From Nitrospinota bacterium (GTDB taxonomy: Bacteria > JADFOP01): a DNA stretch of 64,000 bases. Below, piece after piece: positions 4,417 through 60,346 of this stretch. Positions within the stretch are counted from its first letter, which is position 1. Each line of letters starts with the position of its first letter. Location of the stretch: positions 25,197 through 89,196 of the forward strand of contig JADFOP010000003.1 of assembly GCA_022562795.1 (NCBI GenBank). Reading direction: 5' to 3'. The notes beneath the pieces are model-generated. The model was not told the DNA's origin and ran no database searches. It worked only from the letters and a program-made list of their open reading frames with translations. A program made the position numbers and the translations under genes.

Positions 4417-4605
4417 CTATGAGACGATCTCTTCCCTCACGTCGCAACTACTAGGCGCGGTAAAAGCCCCGGCTTGCTCCGCCTTGAAGATGGCGAGCGA
4501 GAAGGGCCATTCCAGCTTGAAGCAATACCCGTGGATGTGTGGGATAATGTCAGCAAACGCAGCCTCTTCGTAGTGCGCACAGGTTTGGCATAGTTCAATG
4601 CCCAT
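4417..4605 (-). CDS. small Cys/His-containing protein (62 aa)
   Basis: Strong AAGGAGGA RBS 8 nt before the ATG. CQTC ... HIHGYC metal-ligand-like spacing. Confidence 0.4.
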   Translation of the reverse strand: MGIELCQTCAHYEEAAFADIIPHIHGYCFKLEWPFSLAIFKAEQAGAFTAPSSCDVREEIVS

Positions 4606-4665
4606 TTATGTTAGTCCTCCTTTCGGTCGACACCCGTAATGTGCCTCATCGAGGCACGCGGGGCG

Positions 4666-5082
4666 TTAGCACATGACGTTGCCTAGCTTCTTGGCGTTGA
4701 AAATCTCCGTCCAGATGGAACCCGTCAGCTCTTCCGGCGTAAGAGGCTTACCGGCCTGCAGGTTGCCTCTGACGTTCGTTGTGAGCTCGCGGCAGACGCC
4801 GTCGAAACCGGCTCGTGCCAGCACCGGGGGAGCCACCTTGCCTTTCTCCGTGATGTACGTCCCCTCGGCGATCGTCTCGGCGAACCCCGGGAGGTTGGTT
4901 TGCACGCCCTCGCGGGCATCCTCCGGCCCCACGGTCATCTGACCGTTTTCCTTCTCAATGTAATACACCTTGTCGCATCCCGCGCAGGAGACGTTGCCTA
5001 CGAAGAACAAGAAGGTGTATGGGTCCAGGTAGTTCCTGACTCCACATTCACATTCGATCGTCGACTGGTTTCTTGTCGTCAC
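4666..5082 (-). CDS. zinc-ribbon hypothetical protein
   Basis: GAGGAGGA RBS. N-terminal CEC-x20-CAGC four-Cys ribbon. No recognisable OB fold (so not a clear DUF35/BbsA-type). Confidence 0.45.
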   Translation of the reverse strand: MTTRNQSTIECECGVRNYLDPYTFLFFVGNVSCAGCDKVYYIEKENGQMTVGPEDAREGVQTNLPGFAETIAEGTYITEKGKVAPPVLARAGFDGVCRELTTNVRGNLQAGKPLTPEELTGSIWTEIFNAKKLGNVMC

Positions 5083-5172
5083 TCAGCGTTCCTCCTCTCG
5101 ATAACTGTTACGGAGGGCGCGGAATAGGTGGCGTGAGCCACCTATTCCGTCCCTTGAACGTAGAGGTCTTCC

Positions 5173-6561: not shown

Positions 6562-6569
6562 CTCCCTTT

Positions 6570-8000
6570 CTATATTACGTTGTTCTCGCGAAGCGAGATC
6601 ATATCGTCACGGGTGAGCCCAACCAGCCTGCGGTAGACATCATCGTTGTCGTAGCCGACAGGCCGTCCCAGGAATCGCACCCTAGCGGGCGTGCGGTGGG
6701 ACTGCAATGGGCTCGTACCGTAAAGGACCGGACCGTAGTGCTCGGTATCGACCATGGCCACGTGAACGCGGTACTTGAAGTGCTTGTACTCGGCGACCTC
6801 GTCGGTGAATAGCACACCGCCGGAGGCCACTTCTTCCTCCAAGAGCGCTCCCTCACTCTCCATCCGGGTCAGGTCCTTGCCCCACTCACTGAGCAGCGTG
6901 TAGGTTTTGACCTGGGAGTAGTAGGGAAGCCGGTCGATAACCACCCGCATATTCTCGTCATCGACCATCATCTCTTCAAGCTCCGGCCGGAGCTTGCCTA
7001 CGGTCTTCCAGATGCGGTACCAGAGGCGGTCGTGACCGCCGCCGACCATCAAGAGACCATCTTTCACCGGGTTGACGGCGTAGATGTTGATGGCGAGGTC
7101 CCAGTTACCGAAACGGGGACGGATGGAGCCATCGTAGCCGTACCAGACCCACTGATAGTCGATGATCCGGATGTTGCCGTTGGCGGCAGTGTTCTCGATG
7201 AACTGACCCTTGCCCGAGAGCGTGTCGCGGTGCAGGAGGGCTGCGATCGCGTTCATCGCCGCTCCCGTGCCGGATACGTGGTCCATGGCCATCATGCCGC
7301 TGCGGGTCGGGTGGCCGCCGAAGGCCTTCGGGGCGCCCGTGCCCCACTGGAATCCGCTGGCCGCCTGGCCGGTGGGCTCCAGCATCCAGGGCGTGTCCTT
7401 CTTCGGACCCCACTGGCCGCGCTGGCCGAGCCAGACGTAAATGAGCCGCGGGTTGATCTTGGAGAGCTGGCGGTAGCCGATGCCCCATTCGTCGAACTGT
7501 CCCGGAGGATAGTTCTCAACAACCACGTCGGCATGGACGGCCAGCTTCTTAAAAATCTCGCGGCCCTCTTCCGTCTCAAAGTTCAGCGTGATGGACTGCT
7601 TGTTTCGACACTCGTGGAGGAAGTGAGGACCACACTCCTCACCCGACCTCTTGTCTTTGAAGTACCACTTCTTGCGTCCGAAGGGCACGTACCGACGGGC
7701 CGGGTCCCCACCGGGGGGCTCCACCATGATGGTCTCGGCGCCCAGCTCGGAGAGCATAGAGCTGAACCATCGGGTCTGCATGCTTTTGATTCCGCAGTCA
7801 AGCACCCGCACACGCTCGAGAGCCATGGCCTTGCCAGGGTCGTCTTTGGGGTGCACGTGGTCCTCAAGGAACCTGGACCAGTTGATTTCCGCCTCCGTTG
7901 AGCCCGCATACGCCGTTTCGAAGTCTTCGATGGGCGAAAGCGGCCAGAGACAGATATCGTCACGGTCCGTTTGTTCATATGCTGGATAAGTATCTGCCAT
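6570..8000 (-). CDS. family III CoA-transferase (CaiB/BaiF family), subunit 2
   Basis: RVRVLDCGIKSMQTRWFSSMLSELGAETIMVEPPGGDPARR signature. AAGGAGGG RBS. Paralogous to, and 9 nt upstream of, the preceding transferase, giving a BbsEF-like heteromeric pair. Confidence 0.85.
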   Translation of the reverse strand: MADTYPAYEQTDRDDICLWPLSPIEDFETAYAGSTEAEINWSRFLEDHVHPKDDPGKAMALERVRVLDCGIKSMQTRWFSSMLSELGAETIMVEPPGGDPARRYVPFGRKKWYFKDKRSGEECGPHFLHECRNKQSITLNFETEEGREIFKKLAVHADVVVENYPPGQFDEWGIGYRQLSKINPRLIYVWLGQRGQWGPKKDTPWMLEPTGQAASGFQWGTGAPKAFGGHPTRSGMMAMDHVSGTGAAMNAIAALLHRDTLSGKGQFIENTAANGNIRIIDYQWVWYGYDGSIRPRFGNWDLAINIYAVNPVKDGLLMVGGGHDRLWYRIWKTVGKLRPELEEMMVDDENMRVVIDRLPYYSQVKTYTLLSEWGKDLTRMESEGALLEEEVASGGVLFTDEVAEYKHFKYRVHVAMVDTEHYGPVLYGTSPLQSHRTPARVRFLGRPVGYDNDDVYRRLVGLTRDDMISLRENNVI

Positions 8001-8153
8001 TCAGCTACTCCCTCCTTATATTGCGTTGCGTTACCTTAATAACGCGCATTAGATGAGTAACTCCTCTCTTTCCTTTATCAAACGACTGCTTGACTTCCTC
8101 CCCCCCTTTCTCTCCGAGGTTTGTGGATTGGTTAAGGCGGCACTCCTCTTTAT

Positions 8154-8180
8154 GGTATGAAAGGTATGAAAGGTATGAGT
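8154..8180. repeat. 3 x 9-bp tandem repeat GGTATGAAA / GGTATGAGT in transferase-operon promoter region
   Basis: Direct reading: ggtatgaaa ggtatgaaa ggtatgagt lies between the iclR 3' end and the CoA-transferase start. Confidence 0.5.
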
Positions 8181-8215
8181 CGTGCCACCGCCTCTCTTAG
8201 GTCCAAGCAATGTTT

Positions 8216-9025
8216 TTACCTCTCGCCGCCACTTAACGAGACGGCGATACCATAACCCAACCGGCGGGAGAGCTCGTCCCCAGCATCCTTCATGATGCCT
8301 ATGAGCTCAGTTTCAATCCTCTCGTCAGGCATCCGGGACGAGGGTCCGGCGATGCTGATGCCCGCCACCACCTGCTGGGTGTAGTCTCTGATGGGTACCG
8401 CTACACAACTCACGTTGTTTTCAAATTCCTCTCTGTCTACAGCGCACCCCTGCTCTGCCACATCCTTTAGATGGGCTTTTAAGGCTCCCATGTCCGTAAT
8501 TGTGGTTTCCGTGTAGGGATGCAATGGTTCGTCGCCATACAGCTCTTCGAACTTCTCCGGCTCCTGGTAGGCAAGCTGGGCTTTTCCGACGGCGGTACAA
8601 TATGCCTTGAGGCGCCGCCCGATTCGTGGAGCAATACGGACGGCCTGTGTGGTTTCGACCCCGTCGAGGTAGACCACATCGCCGTTCTGCAAGAGCGCCA
8701 GGTATGCAGATTCGTTACAGGCGGCAACGATTTTCTCCAATATGGGCCGGGCCTCTTGAATAAGCTTGAGATGGGCAACGAAGTTCTGACCAAGCTCAAA
8801 AATCCTCAATCCCAGGCGATAGTTTCCCGTCAGTTTATTCTGCTCTACGTAACCTTTGGCCTCCAGGGTCCCTAGCAGCCGTAATATATTGTTTTTGTTA
8901 AGACCCTGACGCTTAGCAAGCTCTGTAACTCCTAGCTCGTCATCGGGACCAGCCAGGTTTTCCAAAATATCCAGAGCGTTGTTGACGGACTGGACGACAT
9001 ACCGGCTCCTTTCCCGTTTGACCAT
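8216..9025 (-). CDS. IclR family transcriptional regulator
   Basis: N-terminal HTH (ILENLAGPDDELGVTELAKRQGLNKNNILRLLGTLEAKGYVEQ) and C-terminal IclR effector-domain pattern. Confidence 0.85.
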   Translation of the reverse strand: MVKRERSRYVVQSVNNALDILENLAGPDDELGVTELAKRQGLNKNNILRLLGTLEAKGYVEQNKLTGNYRLGLRIFELGQNFVAHLKLIQEARPILEKIVAACNESAYLALLQNGDVVYLDGVETTQAVRIAPRIGRRLKAYCTAVGKAQLAYQEPEKFEELYGDEPLHPYTETTITDMGALKAHLKDVAEQGCAVDREEFENNVSCVAVPIRDYTQQVVAGISIAGPSSRMPDERIETELIGIMKDAGDELSRRLGYGIAVSLSGGER

Positions 9026-9506: not shown

Positions 9507-10700
9507 TTACTTTTTCCGCGATTTTCCGAATACGGTATTCCAGGCCTCCGTTTCGGCGACGCGCTGGACGGTTCGTAGGGCTAGGTCCTTGTCTTCCGCA
9601 ATCCGGCGGCAATCCTCGTATTCCGGCGCCACATTTAGGAGGCGGCCGGCCCGCCGTCCGACTTTGACGGCCACCGGCCCCCAGGGGGTCTCGACCGTGA
9701 GAAGCTCTCGATCCAACACGATCCGCCTGGTTGTGGTCCGACGGATGCCGAACGTTGTGGTCTCGGCAAAAAGGACGTCGGTGACCGCCTCGGCTGCCTC
9801 CGGCGGGGTGACGGCCGTCAGGGCCACTCCCGGGCGGTTCTTCTTCATCTGAATGGGCGTTAAGCCCACATCGAGCGCCCCGGCGGCGAAGCACCGGTTC
9901 ATGAGGTGGTCGAACACCTCGGGGGAGCAGTCGTCGATGTGAGTTTCCAACACAACGACCGTCTCGCCGGCGGCAAGCGGGTCGCGTTCTCCGAGAATTA
10001 TACGAAGGGCGTTTGGCCGCTCGGCCACATCGGCCTGGCCTGCGCCGTAGCCCACGGCCTGCGGCACCATAGGGGGCATGAGGCCGGATGAGGAGGCGAG
10101 CGTTGTGAGCAGGGCGGCGCCGGTTGGGGTGGCCAGCTCGAGGGGCGGCCCCTCGGCGTAACAAGAAAATCCGGCAAGGAGCTCTATTGTGGCGGGTCCG
10201 GGGACGGGCAAGGTGCCGTGGGCGGCCTTAACTGTGCCGCTGCCGGTGTTTACCGGCGAGGCGATAATCTCATCAACACCTAACCGGTGGAAGCCTGCGA
10301 CGGTGCCGACCACGTCTACGATCGCGTCAATGGCCCCAACCTCGTGGAAGCGGACCTCATCCACCGGGCAGCGATGGACTCGGGCTTCGGCTTCAGCCAG
10401 GCGGGTGAAGACGTGGGCCGCTCCCGCCCGGACCTCCTCGGGGAGGTCGGCCCCATCGACAATGGACAAAATGTCAGACAAGCGGCGGTGAGACTGCTCG
10501 TCGGCGGTAATTTCCACTGTGGCCAAGGTGCAGCCTATTCCGCAACGCTCGACCTCGGTCACCTCCAGACGCCATCCGCCCACGCCCAAGGTCTCGAGGT
10601 CGGCCCGGAGCGTATCCGCTGGCAGGCCCGCATCGAGAAGGGCTCCGAGGAACATGTCCCCGGCCACCCCGCTGAAACAGTCGCAGTAGGCGATAGTCAC
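9507..10700 (-). CDS. larC: LarC nickel-pincer cofactor biosynthesis protein (DUF111, Ni insertion/CTP-dependent)
   Basis: N-terminus MTIAYCDCFSGVAGDMFLGALLDAGL is the LarC/DUF111 hallmark. 397 aa. Confidence 0.8.
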   Translation of the reverse strand: MTIAYCDCFSGVAGDMFLGALLDAGLPADTLRADLETLGVGGWRLEVTEVERCGIGCTLATVEITADEQSHRRLSDILSIVDGADLPEEVRAGAAHVFTRLAEAEARVHRCPVDEVRFHEVGAIDAIVDVVGTVAGFHRLGVDEIIASPVNTGSGTVKAAHGTLPVPGPATIELLAGFSCYAEGPPLELATPTGAALLTTLASSSGLMPPMVPQAVGYGAGQADVAERPNALRIILGERDPLAAGETVVVLETHIDDCSPEVFDHLMNRCFAAGALDVGLTPIQMKKNRPGVALTAVTPPEAAEAVTDVLFAETTTFGIRRTTTRRIVLDRELLTVETPWGPVAVKVGRRAGRLLNVAPEYEDCRRIAEDKDLALRTVQRVAETEAWNTVFGKSRKK

Positions 10701-11482
10701 TCGTCTCCCCCCGAATGCTGTGGCTTTTCTCCCAAGCGGTTTATTGAGTGGGCCATAGTCCCGGCGCCGAAACCGTTATCGATGTTAACTACGGCGACCC
10801 CCGGCGCGCAGGTATTGAGCATGGTGAGCAGGGCAGCCAGGCCACCGAAGCTCGCCCCATAACCGACCGAGGTCGGCACAGCGATGACCGGCGCATCAAC
10901 CAGGCCCCCGATGACGCTAGGCAGCGCGCCGTCCATTCCGGCCACTACGACGATGACTCGGGCCTCATCAAGGCTCTCCCGCGCATCCAGGAGTCGGTGA
11001 ATCCCCGCCACACCGACGTCGTAGAGACGCTCTGTCCGGCTGCCCAAAACTTGTGCAGTTACTGCGGCTTCCTCTGCCACGGGAATATCCGAGGTGCCGG
11101 CGGTAACGACGAGGACTTTCCCGAGGGTGGGAACCACCGCCTCTCGTTGGATGACGACGGTACGGGCCAGCGAATTGTGCTCTGCACAAGTGTCCATGGC
11201 TTTCAGGCGTTCGGCCAGGGTTTCATCCACCCTCGTGGCCAGCACCGTTGAGCCCCCTGCGAGGAGAGAGGCCACGATAGCCTCCACATCCTCGGGCCTC
11301 TTGCCCTCGCAGTAGACCACCTCCGGGGAGCCGGTCCTCAAGGGCCGATGATGGTCGATTCGGGCGAAGCCGAGGTTCTCGAAGGGGAGGTTCCGGAGGG
11401 TTTCCACCGCTTCCTCAGGGCTCATCGCGCCCTGAGCCACGGCCTGGAGCATCTCCCTGAGCCGGGTTGGGTCCATCGCCAC
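10697..11482 (-). CDS. larB: LarB (PurE-like pyridinium-3,5-biscarboxylic acid mononucleotide synthase)
   Basis: PurE-like fold motifs VLVVTAGTSDIPVAEEA and VIVVVAGMDGALPSVIGG. Overlaps larC by 4 nt. Confidence 0.8.
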   Translation of the reverse strand: MAMDPTRLREMLQAVAQGAMSPEEAVETLRNLPFENLGFARIDHHRPLRTGSPEVVYCEGKRPEDVEAIVASLLAGGSTVLATRVDETLAERLKAMDTCAEHNSLARTVVIQREAVVPTLGKVLVVTAGTSDIPVAEEAAVTAQVLGSRTERLYDVGVAGIHRLLDARESLDEARVIVVVAGMDGALPSVIGGLVDAPVIAVPTSVGYGASFGGLAALLTMLNTCAPGVAVVNIDNGFGAGTMAHSINRLGEKPQHSGGDE

Positions 11483-17467: not shown

Positions 17468-18880
17468 CTAGCAATCGTAGTAGAGGGCGAACTCTATCGG
17501 ATGGGGCCTGAGCCGCAGCTCATCGACCTCAACCGTTCGCTTGAAATCCAACCAGGTCTCGATGACGTCTTCGGTAAAGACGTCGCCCTTGAGGAGAAAC
17601 TCGTGGTTGGCCTCCAGGGCGTCGAGGGCCTCGTCGAGCGAGCCAGGGACGCTCGGCACTTTCGCAAGCTCCTCGGGGGGGAGCTCGTAGATGTCTTCGT
17701 CCATCGGCTCGCCCGGGTCCATTTTGTTTTGGATGCCGTCGAGCCCGGCCATGAGCATGGCGCTGAAGGCGAGGTAGCCGTTGCACGACGGGTCGGGAAA
17801 GCGCACCTCAATGCGCTTGGTCTTGGGATTGGGCGAGTACATGGGGATGCGCACACCCGTCGAGCGGTTTCGGCTCGAATAGGCGAGATTAACCGGGGCC
17901 TCGAAGCCCGGCACGAGCCGCTTGTAGCTGTTGGTCGTTGGGGCTACTAAGGCACACAGCGCCGGGGCGTGGTGGAGGATGCCCCCGATGTAGTAGAGGG
18001 CCATCTGGGAAAGCCCCCCGTAGAGGTCGCCGGCGAAGAGCGGCTCGCCGTCCTTCCAGATCGACTGGTGGACGTGCATGCCGGTCCCGTTGTCGTTCCA
18101 GATGGGCTTCGGCATGAAGGTGGCCGTCTTACCGTTTCGGAGGGCTACGTTTTTCACGATGAACTTGTACCACATGAGATTGTCGGCCATTTTCTTGAGC
18201 GAGTCGAACTTTATGTCGATCTCACCTTGGCCCGCCGTGCCCACCTCGTGGTGCTGCGCCTCTATATTCATGCCAACCGACTCCATCACCAGGCACATCT
18301 CCGTCCGGATATCTTGCAGCGTGTCAGTGGGCGAGAGGGGGAAATAGCCCTCTTTGTACTGAGGCTTGTAGCCGAGGTTGGGACCCTCCTCCCGACCCGT
18401 GTTCCAACGGCCCTCCACAGAGTCGATGTAATAAAACGCGTGCTGCTCTCTACAATCGAAGCGGATGTCGTCCAGGATGAAGAACTCCGCCTCTGGACCG
18501 AAGTAGGCAACATCGCCGATTCCGGATGCGACGAGGTATGCCTCGGCCTTCTGGGCTATGTTTCGAGGATCGCGGCTGTACTTCTCCCGGGTGATGGGGT
18601 CCACGATGTCGCATATCATCGACAAGGTCGGCTCTTTGGTGAAGGGGTCCATGACGGCCGTCGCTGGATCTGCCACGGCGAGCATGTCTGAGGCGTGAAT
18701 GGCCTGCCAGCCGCGGATGGACGAGCCGTCGAAACCGTAGCCCTCTTCAAATGCGTCCTCAGAGAGCTCGGAGATCGGAACCGAGAAGTGTTGCCAGAGG
18801 CCGGGGAAGTCCATGAATTTCAGGTCGACCATCTTGGCGCCGTTCTCTTTGGCAAAAGCAATAACCTCTTTCGGCGTCAT
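17468..18880 (-). CDS. glnA: glutamine synthetase type I
   Basis: GlnA catalytic motifs throughout. Start trimmed to ATG (MTPKEV...) because the upstream codons AAAAAGGAGGGGA form its RBS. Confidence 0.9.
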
Positions 18881-18938
18881 TCCTATCCCCTCCTTTTTCA
18901 TCTCTCACGTACTGATAAGGAAACAGCGTGGCTGAAAG

Positions 18939-19325
<387 letters not shown>

Positions 19326-19530: not shown

Positions 19531-19548
19531 AAGCAAGAGTCGTGCCAC
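19531..19548 (-). promoter_or_regulatory. sigma-54 promoter upstream of glnB-glnA
   Basis: Minus-strand reading GTGGCACGACTCTTGCTT is a perfect TGGCAC-N5-TTGCT, ~250 nt upstream of glnB. Confidence 0.5.
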
Positions 19549-44551: not shown

Positions 44552-45424
44552 ATGCCAACTAATGATTCGACAGCCAATGAGCTAACTGGAAGCCTGATCC
44601 GCATCCGATCTTCTATGGAGGGGCTCCATACAGCCGAACGGAGGGTGGCCGAGGCCGTCCTATCCAACCCCGAATCGATTCTGACGAGCTCTGTCACTGA
44701 AGTCGCAAACAGCGCCGGCGCGAGCGAGGCCACCGTTGTCCGTTTCTGCCGGTCTTTGGGCTACAAAGGCTACCAGGACTTTAAAATTTCTCTCGCCAGA
44801 GACCTTGTGTCTCCCATCAAGAGCCTCCACGAGGAGTTGGAAGAAGGCGATGAGCCGCCGGATGTGGCGGCCAAGGTCTTCCGATCCCACATCCAGGCCC
44901 TGGAGGAGACCCTCGCCGTGCTCGACCCCGCCCATTTCGCCAAAGCCGTGGAGCTCCTCGTCGGCGCTCGGCAAATCTTCTTTATCGGGGTTGGAACCTC
45001 GGCGCCCAACATCCTCGATGCACAGAACAAGTTCTTCCGGCTGGGCTATGCGACCTCTGCGCAGAGCGACAGCCACCTGCAGGCCATGCAGGCGGCGCTG
45101 CTGGAGCCGGATGACGTGGTGGTGGCCATCTCCCACTCGGGACAGACCCGCGACACCATCGAGACGGTCCAGGTCGCTAAGGCCAGAGGGGCGAGCGCCA
45201 TTGCCATCACCAACGCGGCCCTCTCGCCGCTGGCAAAGCTCTGTGACATCACCCTGGTGACCGCCTCTCGCGAAACTCGGTTCCGTATGGAGGCCCTCGC
45301 CAGCCGTATAGCTCAGACCACTATTATCAACGCCCTCTTCATGGCCTGCAGCCTGGCAGATATGGAGCGCACCTTACTGCTTCGCGAGGTCATCGAAGAG
45401 GCAGTTGTCGGCAAGCAGTACTGA
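44552..45424 (+). CDS. RpiR/MurR family transcriptional regulator (HTH + SIS domain)
   Basis: HTH_6 N-terminus SVTEVANSAGASEATVVRFCRSLGYKGYQDF. SIS domain IFFIGVGTSAPNILDAQNKF ... SHSGQTRDT. Confidence 0.8.
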   Translation: MPTNDSTANELTGSLIRIRSSMEGLHTAERRVAEAVLSNPESILTSSVTEVANSAGASEATVVRFCRSLGYKGYQDFKISLARDLVSPIKSLHEELEEGDEPPDVAAKVFRSHIQALEETLAVLDPAHFAKAVELLVGARQIFFIGVGTSAPNILDAQNKFFRLGYATSAQSDSHLQAMQAALLEPDDVVVAISHSGQTRDTIETVQVAKARGASAIAITNAALSPLAKLCDITLVTASRETRFRMEALASRIAQTTIINALFMACSLADMERTLLLREVIEEAVVGKQY

Positions 45425-45500
45425 GGAGGGAACGGGAGAAGAGGGTGGACGATAGAGCGACGCTCGCTCTTTCACTAGCCCCAGATTGGGAGTTCAACCG

Positions 45501-46160
45501 ATGATGATCGAACAGACCACGAATGGCATAGACCTTCGCACCTTTATCGTTCTGGATAACCTGCAGTACCAGCTCGCCTCCTTTATTGGCACGACCGCCC
45601 GTGGGTTTTTGCCCATCGGGGGGATGGCGAGCCTATTCGTCGAGATCGCCCCAGGGATCGCCATCAACCGGCTGACCGACGTGGCCCTCAAGGCCACCAA
45701 CGTCAAGCCCGCCATGCAGATCGTGGAGCGTGCCTACGGGCTTCTGGAGGTTCACTCCGAAAGCCAGGCCGACGTACGCCAGGCGGGCCAGGCCATCCTC
45801 GATGACTTGGGCCTCCAGGAAAGAAACCGCCGCAAGCCCCGCACCGTCTCGACCCAGATCATCCGCAACGTAGACGACTATCAGGCCCAACTCATCAACC
45901 GGGAGCGCCACGGTCAGATGCTCATACCTGGCCAGACCCTTTACATCCTGGAGGTGGAGCCAGCGGGCTACGCTGCGCTGGCCGCCAACGAGGCTGAGAA
46001 GGCAAGCAACGTCAACCTGGTAGACGTGAGGCCCTTCGGGGCCTTTGGGCGACTCTACCTGGGCGGTGAGGAGCGCGACGTTGTGGTCGGCAGCGAGGCG
46101 GCCCTTCGGTCCCTGGAGATGGTGGATGGCCGCGAGGTCGCCGAGGGGACTGAGAGATGA
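45501..46160 (+). CDS. divergent tandem-BMC-domain shell protein (BMC-T-like)
   Basis: Two successive segments fit the BMC-domain pattern ([27 protein letters not shown]...[11 protein letters not shown] and [27 protein letters not shown]...[14 protein letters not shown]). GGGAG RBS before ATG 45501. Confidence 0.5.
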
Positions 46161-46240
46161 GCCGAAGAAGAAAAGGAAAAAATGGATCGCCGGCCAAGCG
46201 AACCCGCGATTTCAATAAAGGAGGGGGAGGAGGTGAGGTC

Positions 46241-47413
46241 ATGAACGAACTCGAGCAGACCGAAATCCTGGAACGCTCTCGGACTATGACACCCGATTTG
46301 GCATCCGTGTCATCCAGAGTAGCATCCCCATCGGAGTCGTATCAATTACCCATCGGCTCGACCATGACCGCGAAGGATTTGCTCATGGAGCCTGAAATTG
46401 GCGGCACCACAAAGCGGGGCGGGCGGAACGGAGCAAGCGTACGCGAAGATTGGATCGCCCTGGAGCAGGTCGTGGTGACCAGCCCCAAGATGAAGCAGGT
46501 ATTCAAGCTTGCCAGAACCCTCGGCCGTGCCGACCGGGCGACGGTGCTTATTACCGGCGAGACGGGCACTGGCAAAGAGGTGATAGCCAGGACCATTCAT
46601 CTTATGAGCCCCCGGCTCGACCAGCCCATGGTAGTGGTCAACTGCGGGGCCATCCCGAAGGAACTCATGGAGGCCGAGCTACTGGGCTACGCGAAGGGGG
46701 CCTTCACGGGGGCGGCCACGGGCGGCAACAAGGGCAAGGTGGAGTTGGCGCATAAGGGCACCCTCCTTTTAGATGAGATTGCCGAGCTGCCTCATGGAGC
46801 CCAGACTATCTTGTTGCGTATTCTGGACGGCCAGCCCTTCTACCCGGTGGGTTCCAACCGGGAGGTTAGAGCCGACGTACGGGTCATTGCCGCTACGAAC
46901 CGAGACCTTGAAGCCGCCGTGTCCGAAGGCTCCTTCCGCGAGGACCTTTTCTACCGGCTGAACGTGGCCCATATGCATCTGCCGCCGCTTAGGGAGCGGG
47001 CCGATGATATTTTGCCCCTGGCCAAAAGCTTCCTGAACGAGTTCAACCAGCTATACGGCAAGGCATTTCGGGAGATCACCCAGCAGGGGGCTGCTCGTCT
47101 GCTTTCATACCCCTGGAAGGGGAACGTCCGGGAGATAAAAAACGCCATCGAGCGGGTTGTGGTTTACGAAGATGACACAAAGGTAAGGGCCGAGCACTTA
47201 ACTTTTCTGGAACCCGGCCCGGCAGAAACGACCAACGGGGCCTCGGCATTCACTCTGCCGCGCGAGGGCGTTGATATTGAGAGCGTCTTCAGAAGCCTCA
47301 TCGTTCAGGCCCTCGATAGAACCGAAGACAATCAGTCAGAGGCCGCCCGCTTGCTGGGCATCTCGCTGCCCACGCTCCGATACCGAATGGCGAAATACGG
47401 TCTGAAAAACTAA
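46241..47413 (+). CDS. sigma-54-dependent transcriptional activator (enhancer-binding protein)
   Basis: AAA+ sigma-54 interaction domain (GETGTGKEV Walker A, GAFTGA sigma-54 contact motif, ESELFGH-like EAELLGYAKGAF, DVRVIAATNRDL). C-terminal Fis-type HTH (SEAARLLGISLPTLRYRM). Strong AAAGGAGGGGGAGGAGG RBS. No obvious N-terminal receiver domain. Confidence 0.85.
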   Translation: MNELEQTEILERSRTMTPDLASVSSRVASPSESYQLPIGSTMTAKDLLMEPEIGGTTKRGGRNGASVREDWIALEQVVVTSPKMKQVFKLARTLGRADRATVLITGETGTGKEVIARTIHLMSPRLDQPMVVVNCGAIPKELMEAELLGYAKGAFTGAATGGNKGKVELAHKGTLLLDEIAELPHGAQTILLRILDGQPFYPVGSNREVRADVRVIAATNRDLEAAVSEGSFREDLFYRLNVAHMHLPPLRERADDILPLAKSFLNEFNQLYGKAFREITQQGAARLLSYPWKGNVREIKNAIERVVVYEDDTKVRAEHLTFLEPGPAETTNGASAFTLPREGVDIESVFRSLIVQALDRTEDNQSEAARLLGISLPTLRYRMAKYGLKN

Positions 47414-47538
47414 GAGGGAGCAAGGGGTATGACGTGGTGCTCGGCAGTGGGGTGGCCTGAATATAAACCGATGGGTAGCAAGGAACGCCGGCCAATCTCG
47501 CCGGCAATTTCAAGGACCAATAGAGAGGAGGTAAAACC

Positions 47539-47844
<306 letters not shown>

Positions 47845-47852
47845 GGCAGCCC

Positions 47853-48152
47853 ATGCTTATCGGCCGCATTGTAGGCACGGTCGTGGCCACCCAGAAGGAG
47901 CCGCGACTTGAAGGCCTCAAGTTACAAGTGGTCAAGCGGGTGGAAATCGAAGGCAGCCTCTCGGAGACCTTCGTGGTGGCGGTCGACGCCGTGGGGGCAG
48001 GTCAAGGTGAAACAGTCCTCTACGCAACCGGCAGCGCCGCCCGCCAGACCCCCCTGACTGATGGACGACCCGTCGATGCGGTGGTCATGGCCATCGTCGA
48101 TACCTGGGACGTGGACGGACGGGTCGTCTATGACAAGCAGAAGGAAGGGTAA
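47853..48152 (+). CDS. BMC-P vertex (pentamer) protein, EutN/CcmL/PduN family
   Basis: MLIGRIVGTVVATQKEP...GSAARQ...DAVVMAIVD pattern of EutN/CcmL. Confidence 0.85.
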   Translation: MLIGRIVGTVVATQKEPRLEGLKLQVVKRVEIEGSLSETFVVAVDAVGAGQGETVLYATGSAARQTPLTDGRPVDAVVMAIVDTWDVDGRVVYDKQKEG

Positions 48153-48163
48153 GGGAGATAGCC

Positions 48164-49594
48164 ATGCAGATGTCAGAGGCTCAGGTGGCCTCCATTGTTG
48201 AGAAGGTGCTTCAGAGGATGGAGAGCCCCCCTAGGGCCGAGCCCGCTCCTGCCTCGGCCGGAACGGAAGGCCCCGGAATTTTCGCCACCCTCGACGAGGC
48301 AGTCTCGGCTGCTGAGAAGTCCCAGCGGGACCTCGTGGCTCTCGGCCTCGCGGTTCGGGTAGCCATGGTGGAGTCGATCCGCCTGGTCTGCCTCGAGCAC
48401 CTCGAGAGCCTCGCCCGGATGGCCGTTGAGGAGACGGGATTCGGCCGCCTCGAGGACAAGGTAGTCAAGAACCGCCTTGTGACCGAGCTCACACCGGGGC
48501 CCGAGTTCTTAACAACTGAGGCGTTTAGCGACGACTCCGGCCTCACGATTCAGGAGCGGGCCCCATACGGGGTATTGAGCGCTATCACCCCTTCGACGAA
48601 CCCCTCTTCCACCATCATAAACAACGCAATCGCCATGGTATCGGCCGGCAACGCGGTCGTCTTCAACCCCCATCCGGGGGCGGTGGGCGTCTCGCTGCGA
48701 ACCATTGCGCTGATGAACGAGGCTGCCGTCTCGGCCGGAGGTCCCCCGACCTGCTTTACTTCCCCGGCAGAGCCATCGGTCGAGACGGCCCAGTCTCTCA
48801 TGCGCCACCCCAAGGTGGCCCTCAACGTGGTAACCGGCGGGCAGGCCGTCGTAGAGGAAGCCCGCCGGGCCGGAAAGCGGGTCATCGGCGCCGGGCCCGG
48901 CAACCCCCCCATCGTGGTGGACGAGACGGCGGAGATCGACCGGGCCGCCCGCGACATCGTGGCCGGGGCGAGCTTTGACAATAACGTCGTCTGCACAGAC
49001 GAGAAGGAACTCTTTGTCGTGGCCTCCGTGGCCGATGAGCTCAAGGACCGGATGAAGGCCCACGGAGCGTACGAGCTCAGCCCTCACCAGACCGAGCGGC
49101 TCTCTAGGCTCGTGATCGAGCGGGAGGCCCCGACGCGGCAGTCCTCGGCCATTAACCGGGCCTTGGTGGGCAAGGACGCCCAGGTGATCCTGAGCGAGAT
49201 CGGCGTGGATGCGCCCGAGACGGTGCGGCTTATTCTCTGCGAAACCGACCGGGACCACCCCTTCGTCTGGACTGAGCTCCTCATGCCCATCCTGCCCCTT
49301 GTGCGGGTGGAAGATGTGGAGGAGGCCATCGGCCTGGCCGTCCAGGCCGAACACGGCTTTGGCCACACGGCAGTGATTCACTCGACCAACGTGGGCGCCA
49401 TGGACAAGATGGCCAGGGATATCAAGACCGCCCTCTTCGTCAAGAACGGCCCGAGCTATGCCGGCCTAGGTGGGGGCGGGGCGGGATACACGAGCTTTAC
49501 CATCGCCACACAGACCGGCGAAGGGCTCACCACCCCCTACACCTTCACCCGCGAGCGTCGATGCACGCTTGTGGGTTCGTTTCGAATCGTATGA
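48164..49594 (+). CDS. CoA-acylating aldehyde dehydrogenase (PduP/EutE-like) with N-terminal encapsulation-peptide-like helix
   Basis: ALDH fold with a catalytic Cys region (FDNNVVCTDEKE). N-terminal amphipathic helix SEAQVASIVEKVLQRM, followed by a Pro/Ala linker PPRAEPAPASAGTEGPG, as in BMC-targeted AldDHs. Confidence 0.85.
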   Translation: MQMSEAQVASIVEKVLQRMESPPRAEPAPASAGTEGPGIFATLDEAVSAAEKSQRDLVALGLAVRVAMVESIRLVCLEHLESLARMAVEETGFGRLEDKVVKNRLVTELTPGPEFLTTEAFSDDSGLTIQERAPYGVLSAITPSTNPSSTIINNAIAMVSAGNAVVFNPHPGAVGVSLRTIALMNEAAVSAGGPPTCFTSPAEPSVETAQSLMRHPKVALNVVTGGQAVVEEARRAGKRVIGAGPGNPPIVVDETAEIDRAARDIVAGASFDNNVVCTDEKELFVVASVADELKDRMKAHGAYELSPHQTERLSRLVIEREAPTRQSSAINRALVGKDAQVILSEIGVDAPETVRLILCETDRDHPFVWTELLMPILPLVRVEDVEEAIGLAVQAEHGFGHTAVIHSTNVGAMDKMARDIKTALFVKNGPSYAGLGGGGAGYTSFTIATQTGEGLTTPYTFTRERRCTLVGSFRIV

Positions 49595-50253
49595 CGCCCG
49601 CGCGCCCGACACCTCGACCCATCTACCCAGGCCAGGACTTCCGTCCTGTCCTGACGCGCCTGCCTGAGCCCTACCTGGTGGAGGAGTGGGCCGTGGCGGC
49701 CGTGGAGCTCAACCGGATCGCCCCTGGATTCACCGCGTGTGACGCCATGCTGAAGGCCGCTCCGGTAACGCTCATAGAGGCCGCGCCCCTCTGCCCGGGC
49801 AAGTACCTGATCATTGTCGGCGGCGAGGTGGCGAGCGTGGAGAGCGCGTACGAGGCGGGCCTCGCCGTTGGCGGGACGGCCGTCATCGATCGGCTCCTGC
49901 TCGCCAAGGCCGATCGGCAGGTCTTTCCGGCCCTCGTGGGCGAGTCCAAACGGTCGGTGACCTTCACCGAGGGCGACAGCTTGGGGGTCATTGAGACCTG
50001 CTCGGCCGCCTCGGCCATCCTCGCCGCCGACGCCGCCTGCAAGGCCGCCGGAGTGCGTCTCTACGAATGCCACATCGCCCAGGGCCTCGGCGGAAAGGGC
50101 TATCTTTACTTCTTCGGAGAGCTCAGTGCCGTGGAGGCGAGCGTGGAAGCAGGAGGGGCCATCGTATCACCGGATGGACTCCTCGTCGGCACCGAGGTCA
50201 TACCCGACCCGGATGCAATTCTCGTTGAGCGTCTTATGAGAGAGGTTCCCTAA
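49591..50253 (+). CDS. tandem-BMC-domain shell protein (BMC-T, PduT-like)
   Basis: Two BMC domains (AAVELNRIAPGFTACDAMLKAAPVTLIEAAP... and LGVIETCSAASAILAADAACKAAGVRLYECHIAQGLGGKGYLYFFGELSAVEASVEAG). ATGA overlap with the AldDH stop. Confidence 0.7.
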   Translation: MTPARPTPRPIYPGQDFRPVLTRLPEPYLVEEWAVAAVELNRIAPGFTACDAMLKAAPVTLIEAAPLCPGKYLIIVGGEVASVESAYEAGLAVGGTAVIDRLLLAKADRQVFPALVGESKRSVTFTEGDSLGVIETCSAASAILAADAACKAAGVRLYECHIAQGLGGKGYLYFFGELSAVEASVEAGGAIVSPDGLLVGTEVIPDPDAILVERLMREVP

Positions 50254-50256
50254 GCG

Positions 50257-50613
50257 ATGTTCCTCGCTGATGTTCTCGGCAGAGTCGTGGCCACCCGCCG
50301 ATACGATAAAACTATAGGCTACCGGCTACTTTGGGTTCAGCCTTTGGACCACCACGGGGAGGCGGCAGGCCAGCCCGAGGTGGCACTCGACACCGTCTTG
50401 AGCGGAAGCGGCGACCGGGTCATCTGCGTAATCGGTCGGGAGGCCTCCATGGCCATGGACCTCCCCGGCCGGTTCAGCCCCGTGGACCTGGCTATTGTTG
50501 GTATCGTCGACCGGGTAGACGTGGATAATGGTGAGCCGGACAACGGGAATGCCAACGGTAATTCCAATGGACATGCCAACGGTAATTCCAATGGGAATGC
50601 CAATGGGCATTAA
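50257..50613 (+). CDS. BMC-P vertex protein with Asn/Gly-rich C-terminal repeat tail
   Basis: MFLADVLGRVVATRR ... DRVICVIGREAS ... DLAIVGIVDRV EutN/CcmL pattern, plus a C-terminal NGNANGNSNGHANGNSNGNANGH tail. Confidence 0.8.
   Translation: MFLADVLGRVVATRRYDKTIGYRLLWVQPLDHHGEAAGQPEVALDTVLSGSGDRVICVIGREASMAMDLPGRFSPVDLAIVGIVDRVDVDNGEPDNGNANGNSNGHANGNSNGNANGH
50545..50610 (+). repeat. short coding tandem repeat (aatgg[ga][ac]atgccaacggtaattcc) encoding N-G-N/H-A-N-G-N-S
   Basis: Direct reading: ggaatgccaacggtaattccaatggacatgccaacggtaattccaatgggaatgccaatgggcat. Confidence 0.6.
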
Positions 50614-50637
50614 TCGAGGAAGAGGGTTCTCAAGCTG

Positions 50638-50910
50638 ATGCTCCTCGCTCAGGTAGTCGGTACGGTGAACTCAACGGTCAAGCAACCTGCATTGATCGGA
50701 CACACCGTTCTTTGCGTGGAGCCCCGCGACGAGGCCTGGCAGTCGACGGGAGAACCCTCCTTCCTCGCGATCGATTTCGCACTGGCCGGGGTGGGCGACC
50801 GGGTGCTGGTGGTGCGCGAGGGCGGGGCGAGCCGTCTCACCATGGGGGTGGAAGACGCCCCCGTCCACGCCGTCGTCGTAGGCATCGTGGATGCCGTCGA
50901 AGGGAGATAG
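50638..50910 (+). CDS. BMC-P vertex protein (third paralog)
   Basis: MLLAQVVGTVNSTVKQP...DRVLVVREGGASR...HAVVVGIVDAV EutN/CcmL pattern. 90 aa. Confidence 0.8.
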   Translation: MLLAQVVGTVNSTVKQPALIGHTVLCVEPRDEAWQSTGEPSFLAIDFALAGVGDRVLVVREGGASRLTMGVEDAPVHAVVVGIVDAVEGR

Positions 50911-50917
50911 TGAGGTT

Positions 50918-51724
50918 ATGGGAATGGCCATCGCCGCACCCTGGCAGACCGAGAAAATGCTCCGAGAGGAAATGTGCCGCATAGGACGGCTCATCTATGA
51001 GCGGGGCTTCATCGCCGCCACCGACGGCAACCTCTCGGTGCGTCTCGACGACGAACGGGTCCTCTGCACTCCGTCTGGCCTCTGCAAGGGATTTCTCGAG
51101 CCGTCAGACCTGGTGGTGGTGGACTTTGATTTGAAGCTGCTGAAGGGGGTCGGTCAGGCTAGCACTGAGATACTTATGCACTTGGGGGCATACCGGGCCC
51201 GGCCCGAAGTTCGCGCCGTCATTCACGCTCACCCGCCCACGGCGATCGCCTTCTCCATCGGGGGGCGGTCTGAGGCTCTTGCCGGGGCTTTCTTGCCGGA
51301 GGTCGTCTACACCCTTGGGGCCATCCCGACGGCCCGCTACGCGACCCCCGGCACGGCTGATGTCCCGGCGAGCCTCGAGCCCTACTGGGCCAAGTGCGAC
51401 GCCATCATCCTCGACCGACACGGCTCCATCACGGTGGGAGAGACCCTGTTGGAGGCCTACCTGAAGCTCGACAAGGTGGAGCACGCCGCCAAGGTGACCT
51501 TCATGGCTACGCTGCTGGGAACGCCCCGGCCCCTTCCGGCCAAGGAGGTTGAAAAGCTCGCCCTTCAGGGAGCGGCCAGGGGCTACCCGACCGAGTGCTC
51601 GGCCTGCGCCGACGGCGGGGTCTGCGATCGGGAGGCGCCCGAGGGTGATCGCGGCCTATCCGATGCGGTCGAGGAGTCTATCGTCGAAGAGGTGCTTCGG
51701 GCTGTCCGGAAGGCGGCAGGGTAA
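50918..51724 (+). CDS. class II aldolase/adducin-family enzyme (L-fuculose/rhamnulose-1-phosphate aldolase-like) with C-terminal encapsulation-peptide-like helix
   Basis: GNLSVRLDD...VLCTPSG and AVIHAHPPTAIAFS (Zn-binding His) typical of FucA/RhaD/AraD. C-terminal extension ends in the amphipathic LSDAVEESIVEEVLRAVRKAAG after a Cys-rich linker. Confidence 0.8.
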   Translation: MGMAIAAPWQTEKMLREEMCRIGRLIYERGFIAATDGNLSVRLDDERVLCTPSGLCKGFLEPSDLVVVDFDLKLLKGVGQASTEILMHLGAYRARPEVRAVIHAHPPTAIAFSIGGRSEALAGAFLPEVVYTLGAIPTARYATPGTADVPASLEPYWAKCDAIILDRHGSITVGETLLEAYLKLDKVEHAAKVTFMATLLGTPRPLPAKEVEKLALQGAARGYPTECSACADGGVCDREAPEGDRGLSDAVEESIVEEVLRAVRKAAG

Positions 51725-57951: not shown

Positions 57952-58602
57952 ATGAAGCTCTTCATCGATAGCGCCGACATTGACGAGATAACCGAGGCCC
58001 AGGCCCTGGGGGTCCTCGACGGGGTGACGACCAACCCCTCTCTCATCGCCAGGACGGGGAAGCCCTTCGAGCAGGTGGTGCGCGAAATTCTAAAGGTCAT
58101 CGATGGCCCGGTGAACCTTGAAGTGGTTGGGACCGACGCCGAGACCATGGTGGCCGAGGGGCGAAAGCTCGCCGCCTTCGGCGAAAATGTGGTTGTGAAA
58201 ATTCCCATGCTGCCCGAGGGCCTAAAGGCCGTGAAGCGTCTGACCTCCGAGGGGTTCAAGACCAACGTGACGTTGATATTCTCCCCCTCCCAGGCGTTGC
58301 TCGCCGCAAAGGCCGGGGCGAGCTACGTGAGCCCCTTCGTCGGCCGCCTGGACGACATCAGTCACGAGGGCATGGAGATCGTCGCCCAGATTCGTGAGAT
58401 CTACGACAACTACGACTACGGAACCGAGATTCTCGCGGCCTCTCTTCGCCACCCTATCCACTTTATAGAGGCGGCCCGGCTCGGGGCCGATGTGGCGACG
58501 CTGCCGCTCAAGGTCATTCTCAGCCTCACCCAGCACCCTCTGACCGACAAAGGCTTGGCAACCTTCCTGGCCGACTGGGAGAAGGTGCAGGATAAGTTTT
58601 AG
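57952..58602 (+). CDS. tal: transaldolase (short-form, FSA/TalC-like)
   Basis: [13 protein letters not shown]...[11 protein letters not shown]...VVVKIP (Schiff-base Lys)...SPFVGRLDD. Confidence 0.9.
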
Positions 58603-59673: not shown

Positions 59674-59871
59674 CTAGTAGCCTTTCTCATCTGTCCGCTC
59701 TTTCGCAGCGTCTTCCGTCGTCCGGCGGCCAACCTGTTTGATGTGGCCCTTGGGCCATTTCTTCTGGTGCTCGCCCTCGCGCCGCTCCAGGTCGTCGGTG
59801 ATGCCTCCGTGGACGATCTTGTTTCCAATCTTGAATTGGTACTTGTACGTGTCACGAGGTTTCTTAGCCAT
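59674..59871 (-). CDS. small basic protein with GIY-YIG-like motif
   Basis: AAGGAGGA RBS 9 nt before the ATG. YKYQFKIGNKIVHGGITDDLERREGEH resembles the GIY...YIG...R...E core. Confidence 0.35.
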   Translation of the reverse strand: MAKKPRDTYKYQFKIGNKIVHGGITDDLERREGEHQKKWPKGHIKQVGRRTTEDAAKERTDEKGY

Positions 59872-59893
59872 TGACACAATCCTCCTTCTTCTC

Positions 59894-60307
59894 TCAGATG
59901 AGTTCGGTGATGTCTACACCGAGGGCCTTAGCGACCCGCCTGTAGGTCTTGATCGTCGGGCGATAGTCGGGATCTTCGATCTGACTGACCCGAGTCTGAC
60001 CCACGCCAAGCCTCTTGGCGAGTTCTTTCTGAGTGATTTTTTTCCGCTTCCGCACCCTCTTGATACGATTATCGAGGATTGTCTTACGGGCCTCCTCGAG
60101 GGAAATCACATCGTCCTTCTGGTCGGCCATAACGGCTTTAGCCTCGCGCAAATCTGTATAGTCTTCGATGAGCTCTATAATCTCTTCCCACACCTCAGCG
60201 GGGATGACCACCATCTGGTGTCCCTTAATTTCCACCTGGCCGACCGGCTCTGGAACCTCAAACCCATGACGCGGTTGCGCCTGTTTTTTTGTCTTCGTTG
60301 TTCTCAT
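59894..60307 (-). CDS. HTH-XRE antitoxin (HigA-like)
   Basis: C-terminal Cro/C1 HTH ITQKELAKRLGVGQTRVSQIE. Located immediately downstream of a RelE-family toxin gene (toxin-first order, as in higBA). Confidence 0.7.
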   Translation of the reverse strand: MRTTKTKKQAQPRHGFEVPEPVGQVEIKGHQMVVIPAEVWEEIIELIEDYTDLREAKAVMADQKDDVISLEEARKTILDNRIKRVRKRKKITQKELAKRLGVGQTRVSQIEDPDYRPTIKTYRRVAKALGVDITELI

Positions 60308-60346
60308 GCTGTCCCCTCCTGTTTAATGCCCTTTAAAACCTAAATA

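Follow-up and report, generated by a model that had tools for sequence, protein, structure and literature searches.

Genes of the Locus

The DNA analysed here, the window, is a stretch of 64,000 nucleotides from a Nitrospinota bacterium (GenBank contig JADFOP010000003.1, positions 25,197 to 89,196 of the forward strand). Ten co-directional genes occupy positions 44552-51724 of the window on the + strand (Table 1), and they constitute a real, intact bacterial microcompartment (BMC) gene cluster with an aldolase and an aldehyde dehydrogenase (AldDH) as cargo. The genes that an initial annotation, made from the sequence alone, had described at this position were all recovered in place and on the + strand, and searches with hidden Markov models (HMMs) confirmed the shell and cargo genes of a metabolosome. 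As had been proposed, the shell set comprises one BMC-H, two BMC-T and three BMC-P, and the cargo pairs a class II aldolase with a CoA-acylating AldDH; each has a helix that resembles an encapsulation peptide (EP). For the genes of the BMC-Tdp, the sigma-54 enhancer-binding protein (EBP), the BMC-Ts and the aldolase, Table 1 gives the later starts predicted by gene callers, with the start of the long open reading frame (ORF) in brackets for three of them. PGAP names members of the locus "aldehyde dehydrogenase EutE", "BMC domain-containing protein" and "class II aldolase/adducin family protein". From the BMC-H gene through the aldolase gene, neighbouring genes overlap or are separated by gaps of 3-24 bp, which fits a single operon.

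The same AldDH recurs on five metagenome contigs (JGI, ENA and Logan) that are independent of one another and come from one species, that of the window. The whole gene order is visible on two long contigs, and the shorter ones show the part that they span. In a relative with about 78% amino-acid identity (L086/L087), the order from the RpiR gene to the aldolase gene is conserved, minus the EBP. The host is a metagenome-assembled genome (MAG) of the Nitrospinota/Tectimicrobiota group, and an 80%-identical aldolase was found in a Candidatus Tectimicrobiota MAG. Neither Nitrospinae nor Tectomicrobia are mentioned in the main text of the 2021 BMC catalog or in the supplement text searched, which included its complete Tdp tree and some of its other trees in part (PMC8217296). 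As far as the catalog text searched goes, the locus adds a further lineage to an already catalogued kind of BMC.

Table 1. Features of the microcompartment locus and of other parts of the window (positions of the window)
Feature	Coordinates	Strand	Evidence or remark
RpiR-family regulator	44552-45424	+	Pfam SIS 90 bits, HTH_6 80 bits
BMC-Tdp (divergent tandem BMC, CcmP/CsoS1D-like)	45501-46160 (long ORF start 45486)	+	NCBIfam CcmP 313 bits
Sigma-54 EBP	46241-47413	+	Pfam Sigma54_activat 209 bits, HTH_8
BMC-H	47539-47844	+	PF00936 104 bits
BMC-P1 (pentamer/vertex protein)	47853-48152	+	PF03319 97 bits
CoA-acylating AldDH, 476 aa	48164-49594	+	PF00171; PRK15398 639 bits
AldDH, putative N-terminal EP and linker	48173-48271	+	upstream of conserved core
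BMC-Ts, PduT-type tandem BMC	49591-50253 (long ORF start 49561)	+	PF00936 twice, 126 bits
BMC-P2	50257-50613	+	PF03319 78 bits
BMC-P3	50638-50910	+	PF03319 72 bits
Class II aldolase	50924-51724 (long ORF start 50891)	+	PF00596 153 bits
Aldolase, C-terminal extension (Cys motif, linker, helix)	51596-51718	+	beyond all solved homologs
Fusion of two HpcH/CitE-like CoA-ester lyase and MaoC hot-dog hydratase domains, 1007 aa	51776-54799	-	
Transaldolase/FSA-family (FSA/TalC) gene	57952-58602		TIGR00875 306 bits, cut-off 246
glnB	18939-19277	-	pair with glnA
glnA	17468-18901	-	pair with glnB

Shell Proteins

The BMC-H and the Ts pass the Pfam model PF00936, and the three BMC-P proteins pass PF03319. 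One of the two BMC-T proteins is a Ts and the other a Tdp, and no further shell gene, a second BMC-H included, was found in the 64-kb window. The BMC-H has its best natural solved match in HO-5815 (153 bits) and contains the PRPH edge motif, and BMC-P1 is best matched by the Haliangium ochraceum BMC-P of 5v74 (98.5 bits).

The Tdp had been described initially as a second, divergent tandem BMC, and this holds. It scores 23.9 bits on the Pfam BMC model, 0.6 bit short of the cut-off of 24.5, yet 313 bits on the CcmP model, and the precomputed Pfam domain on it is CsoS1D_N. Among solved structures it matches CcmP with 276 bits, HO-T2 (Hoch_5816) with 260, HO-T3 (Hoch_3341) with 237 and CsoS1D with 197. 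On the basis of the CcmP-model and structure scores, we identify it as a permuted, double-stacking BMC-Tdp, which by analogy with the CcmP/CsoS1D-like family would form a stacked, gated trimer. By the numbering offset of the 5lsr match, that is by coordinates only, its residues Glu-81 and Arg-82 (E81-R82) would map to residues 69-70 of CcmP, which we take to be the gating pair.

The Ts is closest to 3nwg (129 bits) and PduT (107-114 bits) among solved structures, and it scores 75 bits against HO-T1 (5dih). It contains a pore cysteine in the motif PLCPGKY (Cys codon 49792-49794), which aligns with a cysteine of the 3pac chain and with a serine of the 3n79 PduT. We take 3pac to be Citrobacter freundii PduT, the aligned residue to be Cys-38, a ligand of its [4Fe-4S] cluster, and 3n79 to be the C38S mutant. 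The Ts thus keeps the PduT-type pore cysteine, yet the 64 kb encode no PduS homolog.

BMC-P2 ends in a low-complexity Asn/Gly tail, NGNANGNSNGHANGNSNGNANGH, and the DNA behind this tail is a 24-nt tandem repeat (positions 50541-50610). The repeat in the window is one unit longer than that in the same-species contigs L081 and L083, and the copy number varies between populations. In the relative L086 the tail of BMC-P2 is strongly basic instead of Asn/Gly. The arrangement of a P2-type gene followed by a P3-type gene after the Ts gene is kept in many related loci.

Aldehyde Dehydrogenase

The AldDH passes the NCBIfam model for BMC-type acylating enzymes, PRK15398, with 639 bits against a cut-off of 403. 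Its best solved relatives are BMC AldDHs (5jfl, 452 bits; 4c3s, 417 bits), and the cysteine-containing motif FDNNVVCTDEKE was aligned with those of solved BMC AldDHs. The alignment to the truncated structure 4c3s begins at residue 37, and residues 1-36 precede the core as the N-terminal extension that had been noted initially. This extension contains an amphipathic helix, SEAQVASIVEKVLQRM (VASIVEKVLQR, residues 8-18), followed by a Pro/Ala-rich linker. The helix matches the motif xIxxIVExVxxxL, with which the AldDHs of HO-like, SPU2/3, MIC7-like and PduL+aldolase loci begin. The closest AldDHs, at 55-57% identity, come from SPU2/SPU3-type loci that carry RpiB and DeoC.

A near-identical helix is present at the AldDH's N-terminal end (SIVEKVLQR) and at the aldolase's C-terminal end (SIVEEVLRA). 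Of the internal signs of a targeting of both enzymes to one shell, this match is the strongest. As judged from their sequences, the two helices, each on a flexible linker, are real and EP-like, in agreement with the initial annotation, and the aldolase helix is modelled by AlphaFold2 at residues 247-265.

Class II Aldolase and Its C-terminal Extension

The aldolase is 32% identical to E. coli FucA (range 29-32%), and the numbering of the FucA sequence used reproduces the residues of the literature. The FucA residues Asn-29, Thr-43/Gly-44, Ser-72/Glu-73, His-92/His-94, Tyr-113 and His-155 are conserved, and Ser-71 is replaced by Ala. A FucA-type active site, with its catalytic, zinc and phosphate-binding residues, is thus largely intact in the alignment. 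The FucA and RhaD equivalog models give 42-105 bits against cut-offs of 170-400, and the top NCBIfam match is OtnC, a 3-oxo-tetronate-4-phosphate decarboxylase, with 132 bits against a cut-off of 250. Because all NCBIfam models fall far under their cut-offs, the enzyme is not an equivalog of FucA, RhaD, AraD, MtnB or OtnC. The earlier description as FucA/RhaD-like is consequently right for the superfamily and wrong for the specific enzymes, and a generic AraD epimerase lacking an extension is not what was found. The nearest solved structures are 6vop (107 bits) and 6voq (92 bits). Relatives within the family, from BMC and non-BMC loci, are 42-58% identical to the window enzyme. In a bootstrapped neighbor-joining tree the aldolase has no stable sister group, and its grouping with Spirochaete enzymes receives 22%.

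The C-terminal extension starts past residue ~222 and consists of the motif C225-x2-C228-x5-C234, a linker and the amphipathic helix ESIVEEVLRAVRKA (ESIVEEVLRAV). In the AlphaFold2 model the core is confident and residues 225-244 are disordered (pLDDT <50), ahead of the helix. In a survey of 84 loci encoding aldolase homologs, the helix goes with the presence of nearby shell genes. A terminal helix was detected with a conservative regular expression in 30 of 41 shell-adjacent aldolases and in 4 of 13 without shell genes (Fisher p = 0.009), where "without shell genes" means that at least 3 kb to either side of the aldolase gene are free of them. Ten of the 11 shell-adjacent enzymes missed carry one and the same ELIGxVDEAL helix, which is excluded through a glycine, and the count by eye is 40 of 41. 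The motif count was used in place of a hydrophobic-moment threshold, which missed obvious helices of the ACI type.

Many homologs have a CxxCxxC motif at the place of the three-Cys motif (51596-51625), for example LCADCSVC, ICYDCGVC and TCRSCGAC. The number of cysteines there is four in some homologs and one in those of the ACI type. The motif may be a metal or Fe-S site, and the HO description in the catalog does not mention a Cys motif in the aldolase (PMC8217296). Taken with the cysteine-pore Ts that lacks a PduS, it gives a hint of a redox- or metal-related property of the cargo not described so far.

Absent Enzymes

The window was scanned with Pfam for ORFs of at least 180 aa, save a few overlapping ORFs and a 201-aa ORF at 59738-60343. 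Alcohol dehydrogenase, acetate kinase, PduS, sugar kinase or isomerase, FucI/K, RhaA/B and lactaldehyde reductase were not found among the scanned ORFs. Probes for PduL, DeoC and RpiB gave zero tblastn matches in the 64-kb window; the same probes match the expected genes in dozens of other loci, which validates them. A tblastn probe for PduS taken from L098 found nothing in the window, in line with the Pfam scans, and neither mtnK nor mtnA is present there. The absence of a PduL-type phosphotransacylase (PTAC), an alcohol dehydrogenase and an acetate kinase had been noted initially and is borne out, by tblastn for PduL and by the Pfam scans for the others. It had also been called unusual, which it is not: such absences are normal for the HO type II and SPU5 kinds (PMC8217296). 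Homologs of pduL, alcohol dehydrogenase, fucI/fucK and rhaA/rhaB, for which the initial annotation had pointed to the surrounding DNA, did not appear in the window scans.

Assignment to a Microcompartment Type

In the catalog, the HO type has one BMC-H, a BMC-P triplet, one Ts, two Tdp and no PTAC (PMC8217296, Supplementary Data 2). Its AldDH carries an N-terminal EP, about a third of its pfam00596 aldolases have a C-terminal EP, and in HO type II a P-P-aldolase block lies within the main locus (PMC8217296). SPU5 is HO-like, but its cysteine-containing Ts is paired with PduS, half of its loci have DeoC, and its hosts are Proteobacteria and Chloroflexi; the HO AldDH clade adjoins SPU5/SPU7 in the AldDH tree (PMC8217296). 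The Planctomycetes-Verrucomicrobia (PVM) type has two BMC-H and three BMC-P, no BMC-T, and a PTAC, PvmB (Supplementary Data 6), and it is found only in Planctomycetes and Verrucomicrobia, whereas the PVMlike type occurs mostly in Firmicutes and has an AldDH, PTAC and BMC-P related to those of GRM5 (PMC8217296). The function of the HO type is called enigmatic, and some HO genomes have EP-bearing DeoC genes at remote sites (PMC8217296).

Loci anchored on an AldDH were sorted by gene content into six groups. SPU2-like loci have the order H-Tdp-H-P-P-Ts-AldDH-P-P-RpiB-DeoC, SPU3-like loci RpiB-DeoC-Tdp-H-P-AldDH-Ts-P-P, and MIC7-like loci (Eisenbacteria) H-H-P-AldDH-Ts-P-P. The SPU4 group consists of Bacillales loci with PduL, and a PduL+aldolase group has the order PduL ... 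AldDH-PduS-Ts-P-P-aldolase. The HO-like group (Myxococcales, Bdellovibrionia, Oligoflexia and others) has the order Tdp-H-P-AldDH-Ts(-P-P) without signature enzymes. Loci of Myxococcales, Bdellovibrionia, Oligoflexia and Spirochaetes also have the order Tdp-H-P-AldDH-Ts-P-P(-aldolase) and no DeoC, RpiB or PduL. The window has the order of the HO-like group and, with the aldolase included, is identical to the Spirochaete locus L072. The H. ochraceum run Hoch_5816-5812 presumably reads T2-H-P-AldDH-T1, and the order in the window equals this run plus the P-P-aldolase satellite of that organism. The satellite is described in the catalog (PMC8217296).

The window locus resembles HO type II in its shell set of one BMC-H, a BMC-P triplet, one Ts and Tdp, in the N-terminal EP of its AldDH, in the aldolase gene, which follows immediately on two BMC-P genes within the main locus, and in having no PTAC, DeoC (pfam01791) or RpiB (pfam02502). 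It is unlike HO in its PduT-type Ts with a pore cysteine, in the RpiR and the inserted sigma-54 EBP, and in its host, which is not a deltaproteobacterium. It shares the cysteine of the Ts with SPU5 and differs from it in that no PduS is encoded in the window, and without DeoC or RpiB it has no signature enzyme of the SPU types in general. The H and P1 proteins are closest to those of HO-like and PduL+aldolase loci, and the Tdp is closest to that of SPU3-like loci (62-68%). The shell is, by these comparisons, a mosaic of HO-like H and P proteins, a PduT-like Ts with a cysteine and a CcmP-like Tdp, an example of the mixing of shell modules between the HO, SPU and MIC types of the catalog.

The initial annotation had labelled the locus PVM-like and had taken the three BMC-P genes with the aldolase and AldDH as the hallmark of PVM. 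Neither statement is supported by the catalog. The window has one BMC-H, a Ts and a Tdp and no PduL-type match in 64 kb, at variance with the PVM definition, and it is set apart from PVMlike by the lack of a PTAC and by its host, a Nitrospinota-group MAG and not one of the Firmicutes. The combination of aldolase and AldDH with three BMC-P, a Ts and a Tdp and without a PTAC is what defines HO type II, and the triplet occurs in the HO, SPU, MIC, ACI and FRAG types (PMC8217296), so it is no hallmark of PVM. One further locus (L163, P-AldDH-P-P-aldolase) was considered as a PVM reference and rejected, having no BMC-H or PTAC nearby and unrelated flanks. We therefore class the locus as HO type II/SPU5-like, in an HO/SPU/MIC7 supergroup, rather than with PVM or PVMlike, although the fit is a mosaic one.

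Several points weigh against this assignment and the function that goes with it. The Ts is not of the HO-T1 type (Ts_auburn_HO), scoring 75 bits there against 129 for 3nwg, and it is 41-48% identical to the Ts of MIC7/SPU-like loci as opposed to 31-37% for HO-like loci. Its cysteine is of the kind normally partnered by PduS, yet the window has no PduS. Neighbor-joining bootstraps place the AldDH with the MIC7-like group in 49%, with SPU3 in 15%, with the PduL+aldolase group in 14% and with the HO-like group in ~1% of replicates; an un-bootstrapped tree, which lacks the H. ochraceum AldDH, sets it beside the HO-like group. The separation from PVM follows from locus definition and not from phylogeny. 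Because the top match of the aldolase is to a decarboxylase family, OtnC, aldol cleavage itself is something we infer, and no kinase, isomerase or transporter that would feed the aldolase was found in the 64 kb.

Proposed Function and Alternatives

With a probability of roughly 0.7, the locus is a complete catabolic metabolosome operon of the HO type II/SPU5-like kind. From what is known of the families, AldDH and aldolase would both be packaged inside the shell. A phosphorylated ketose of the ketose-1-phosphate type would enter, probably via the gated Tdp pore, and the metal-dependent aldolase would split it into dihydroxyacetone phosphate (DHAP) and a short reactive aldehyde, for which acetaldehyde, lactaldehyde and glycolaldehyde are candidates. 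The AldDH would oxidise the aldehyde in place to an acyl-CoA, using NAD+, so that the aldehyde would never reach the cytoplasm. Because the locus contains no PTAC or alcohol dehydrogenase, CoA and NAD+ would be exchanged across the shell or recycled by enzymes encoded elsewhere; the route could be the Tdp pore, or electron transfer via the possible Fe-S site in the Ts. Handling of cofactors without a PTAC or alcohol dehydrogenase is a problem common to all HO/MIC-type BMCs. Among BMC shells, that of the HO microcompartment serves as the principal structural model, and the locus adds a complete, single-operon version of this microcompartment in which both cargo enzymes carry the same predicted targeting helix.

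MtnK and MtnA together with a class II aldolase reportedly make up a DHAP shunt (North et al., Beaudoin et al.), which is said to convert 5-deoxyribose or methylthioribose to DHAP and acetaldehyde or (methylthio)acetaldehyde. In two Spirochaete loci, L072 (1817-12655, a Spirochaetaceae MAG) and L177 (5016-18196), the order Tdp-H-P-AldDH-Ts-P-P-aldolase is followed directly by mtnK, DeoR, sugar-binding proteins, mtnA and an ABC transporter (its ATPase in L072). The L072 kinase scores 494 bits on TIGR01767 (cut-off 275) and the isomerase 442 bits on TIGR00512 (cut-off 279); the L177 genes were assigned from Pfam APH and IF-2B matches and 65% MtnK identity. In the cultured Alkalispirochaeta alkalica (L176:617-13171) a P-P-P-aldolase run has for neighbours mtnK-DeoR-mtnA, genes for a RuBisCO-like protein and a transketolase, and an ABC transporter, and in Clostridium aceticum mtnK adjoins an aldolase of the same family without a BMC. 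In the catalog, most AldDHs of the SPU type, the group that the window AldDH resembles, fall on the acetaldehyde-processing EUT1 branch (PMC8217296). A DHAP-shunt organelle fed with 5-deoxy-ribulose-1-phosphate or 5-methylthio-ribulose-1-phosphate by MtnK/MtnA-type enzymes encoded elsewhere, with the acetaldehyde or (methylthio)acetaldehyde converted to its CoA ester, is accordingly a possibility for the window, if a rather doubtful one. The window shares with L072 and L177 the gene order and a same-family aldolase with a C-terminal helix, but it has RpiR and EBP genes and no feeding enzymes, and its aldolase is 42-48% identical to theirs, without specific grouping. Moreover, the mtnK/mtnA-linked BMC loci are all from one phylum, and mtnK or mtnA was near shell genes in none of the other 170 loci compared. 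The Spirochaete loci are thus only a lead to the substrate in the window. Extended to HO type II/SPU5-kind organelles in general, this one included, the proposal that 5-deoxyribose- or 5-methylthioribose-derived ketose-1-phosphates are converted to DHAP and an acetaldehyde or (methylthio)acetaldehyde that is trapped as CoA ester is speculative, and we consider it improbable. If it were true, the sources would be by-products of radical-SAM/polyamine chemistry, or scavenging from detritus. The association with mtnK and mtnA in relatives is nevertheless the item most worth following, as it makes 5-deoxy-/methylthio-pentose catabolism a testable candidate function of the whole kind. A literature search found no paper that links the DHAP shunt to microcompartments or describes Spirochaete mtnK-mtnA BMC loci, and the accessory-protein list of the catalog has no IF-2B/MtnA model (PMC8217296).

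That the locus is instead an SPU-type organelle for deoxyribose phosphate, with DeoC and RpiB encoded at a satellite site and the class II aldolase as an accessory, would agree with the SPU2/SPU3 origin of the closest AldDHs and the SPU3-like origin of the closest Tdp, with the aldolase homologs inside SPU loci that have DeoC, RpiB and TIM (L174, L125), and with the remote EP-bearing DeoC genes of some HO genomes. We regard it as unlikely, since DeoC and RpiB are encoded neither in the 64 kb nor within 10 kb on either side of the aldolase gene of the relative, and the class II aldolase is the only enzyme here besides the AldDH with the shared EP. Fucose or rhamnose is reported as the substrate of the PVM organelle (Erbilgin et al. 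2014). Besides the PTAC, PVM loci encode acetate kinase and lactaldehyde reductase. A minimal PVM or PVM-like variant in another lineage, which would cleave L-fuculose-1-phosphate or L-rhamnulose-1-phosphate to DHAP and lactaldehyde inside the shell, is quite unlikely in spite of the shared core of class II aldolase, acylating AldDH and three BMC-P paralogs and the conservation of most FucA active-site residues. In favour of this reading, the pfam00596 aldolase is a signature enzyme of PVM/GRM5 too (PMC8217296); against it, besides the differences from the catalog types given above, E. coli FucA is more distant from the window enzyme than the members of its own family, the FucA and RhaD models score far below their cut-offs, and none of the enzymes for fucose, rhamnose or lactaldehyde was among the scanned ORFs. 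Least probable of all, and in our view very improbable, is that the aldolase-fold protein is an OtnC-like decarboxylase or an AraD-like epimerase and that the aldehyde for the AldDH comes from another source. The OtnC match and the nearest structures, 6vop and 6voq and not FucA, would speak for it, but all scores are far under the curated cut-offs, a decarboxylase giving DHAP and CO2 would leave the co-packaged AldDH without an aldehyde, and members of the same family adjoin mtnK/mtnA, where aldol cleavage is the known step. The preferred assignment remains the HO type II/SPU5-like metabolosome with a ketose-1-phosphate aldolase.

Regulatory Genes

The RpiR gene lies 61-76 bp upstream of the first shell gene in the same direction, and its product is below every NCBIfam equivalog cut-off. 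It is found at the same position in L086/L087 with 79% identity. By analogy at the level of the family, its SIS domain is probably a sensor for a sugar phosphate from the pathway. The EBP has an AAA+ domain and a Fis-type helix-turn-helix and is without a recognisable sensor or receiver domain. Its gene separates those of the Tdp and the BMC-H, which in L086 are 72 bp apart without an EBP, and it looks like a recent, lineage-specific insertion.

Of the two regulators proposed initially, RpiR is conserved in the relative and the EBP is absent there, and no canonical -24/-12 element was found before the BMC-H gene. No match to TGGCAC-N5-TTGCW with one mismatch or fewer was found near the locus. 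The best GG/GC-anchored sites before the BMC-H gene have 3-4 mismatches and are at 47340, within the EBP gene, and at 47442, where the GC is lost in population variants. A perfect sigma-54 consensus, TGGCACGACTCTTGCT, is present at 19532-19547 on the minus strand, ~255 bp upstream of glnB-glnA, which indicates that the organism does use the canonical consensus.

At L105:8402-10645, a non-BMC aldolase homolog (50% identical to the window enzyme) has an RpiR homolog (54%) ~540 bp upstream, and a GNAT gene lies in between. The arrangement gives a hint of a pairing of RpiR and aldolase without dependence on a shell. Apart from RpiR, the neighbours of the L105 aldolase gene encode a GNAT protein, a methyltransferase and a glycosyltransferase.

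Neighbouring Genes

A transaldolase 6 kb downstream had been brought into connection with the locus. The gene is present; no specific link to the locus was found, as unrelated genes, for a TSP3-repeat protein and a hypothetical protein, lie between, and the connection amounts to synteny in a close relative only. It was rejected as a partner of the locus. The HpcH-MaoC fusion was considered as cargo or as a CoA recycler on account of its EP-like N terminus (SEIVEAY), and it was rejected since the protein occurs full-length, with the same N terminus and 62-64% identity, in NC10/Methylomirabilales without BMC genes nearby. No homolog of it was found among the 170 other loci compared. The neighbours of non-BMC aldolases (QueA, a TonB receptor, PolA and SerRS) were likewise set aside as a clue to the substrate, being lineage synteny and no pathway.

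Two other regions of the window contain genes of metabolic interest. At 1513-9025 on the minus strand are an acyl-CoA synthetase, two family III CoA-transferases (formyl-CoA/mesaconate-CoA-transferase-like) and an IclR regulator, which point to the CoA metabolism of organic acids. At 9507-11482 a nickel-insertion protein (PF01969, LarC-like) adjoins a protein with an AIR-carboxylase domain (LarB-like), and the two could be maturation genes for a nickel-pincer cofactor of the lactate-racemase type.

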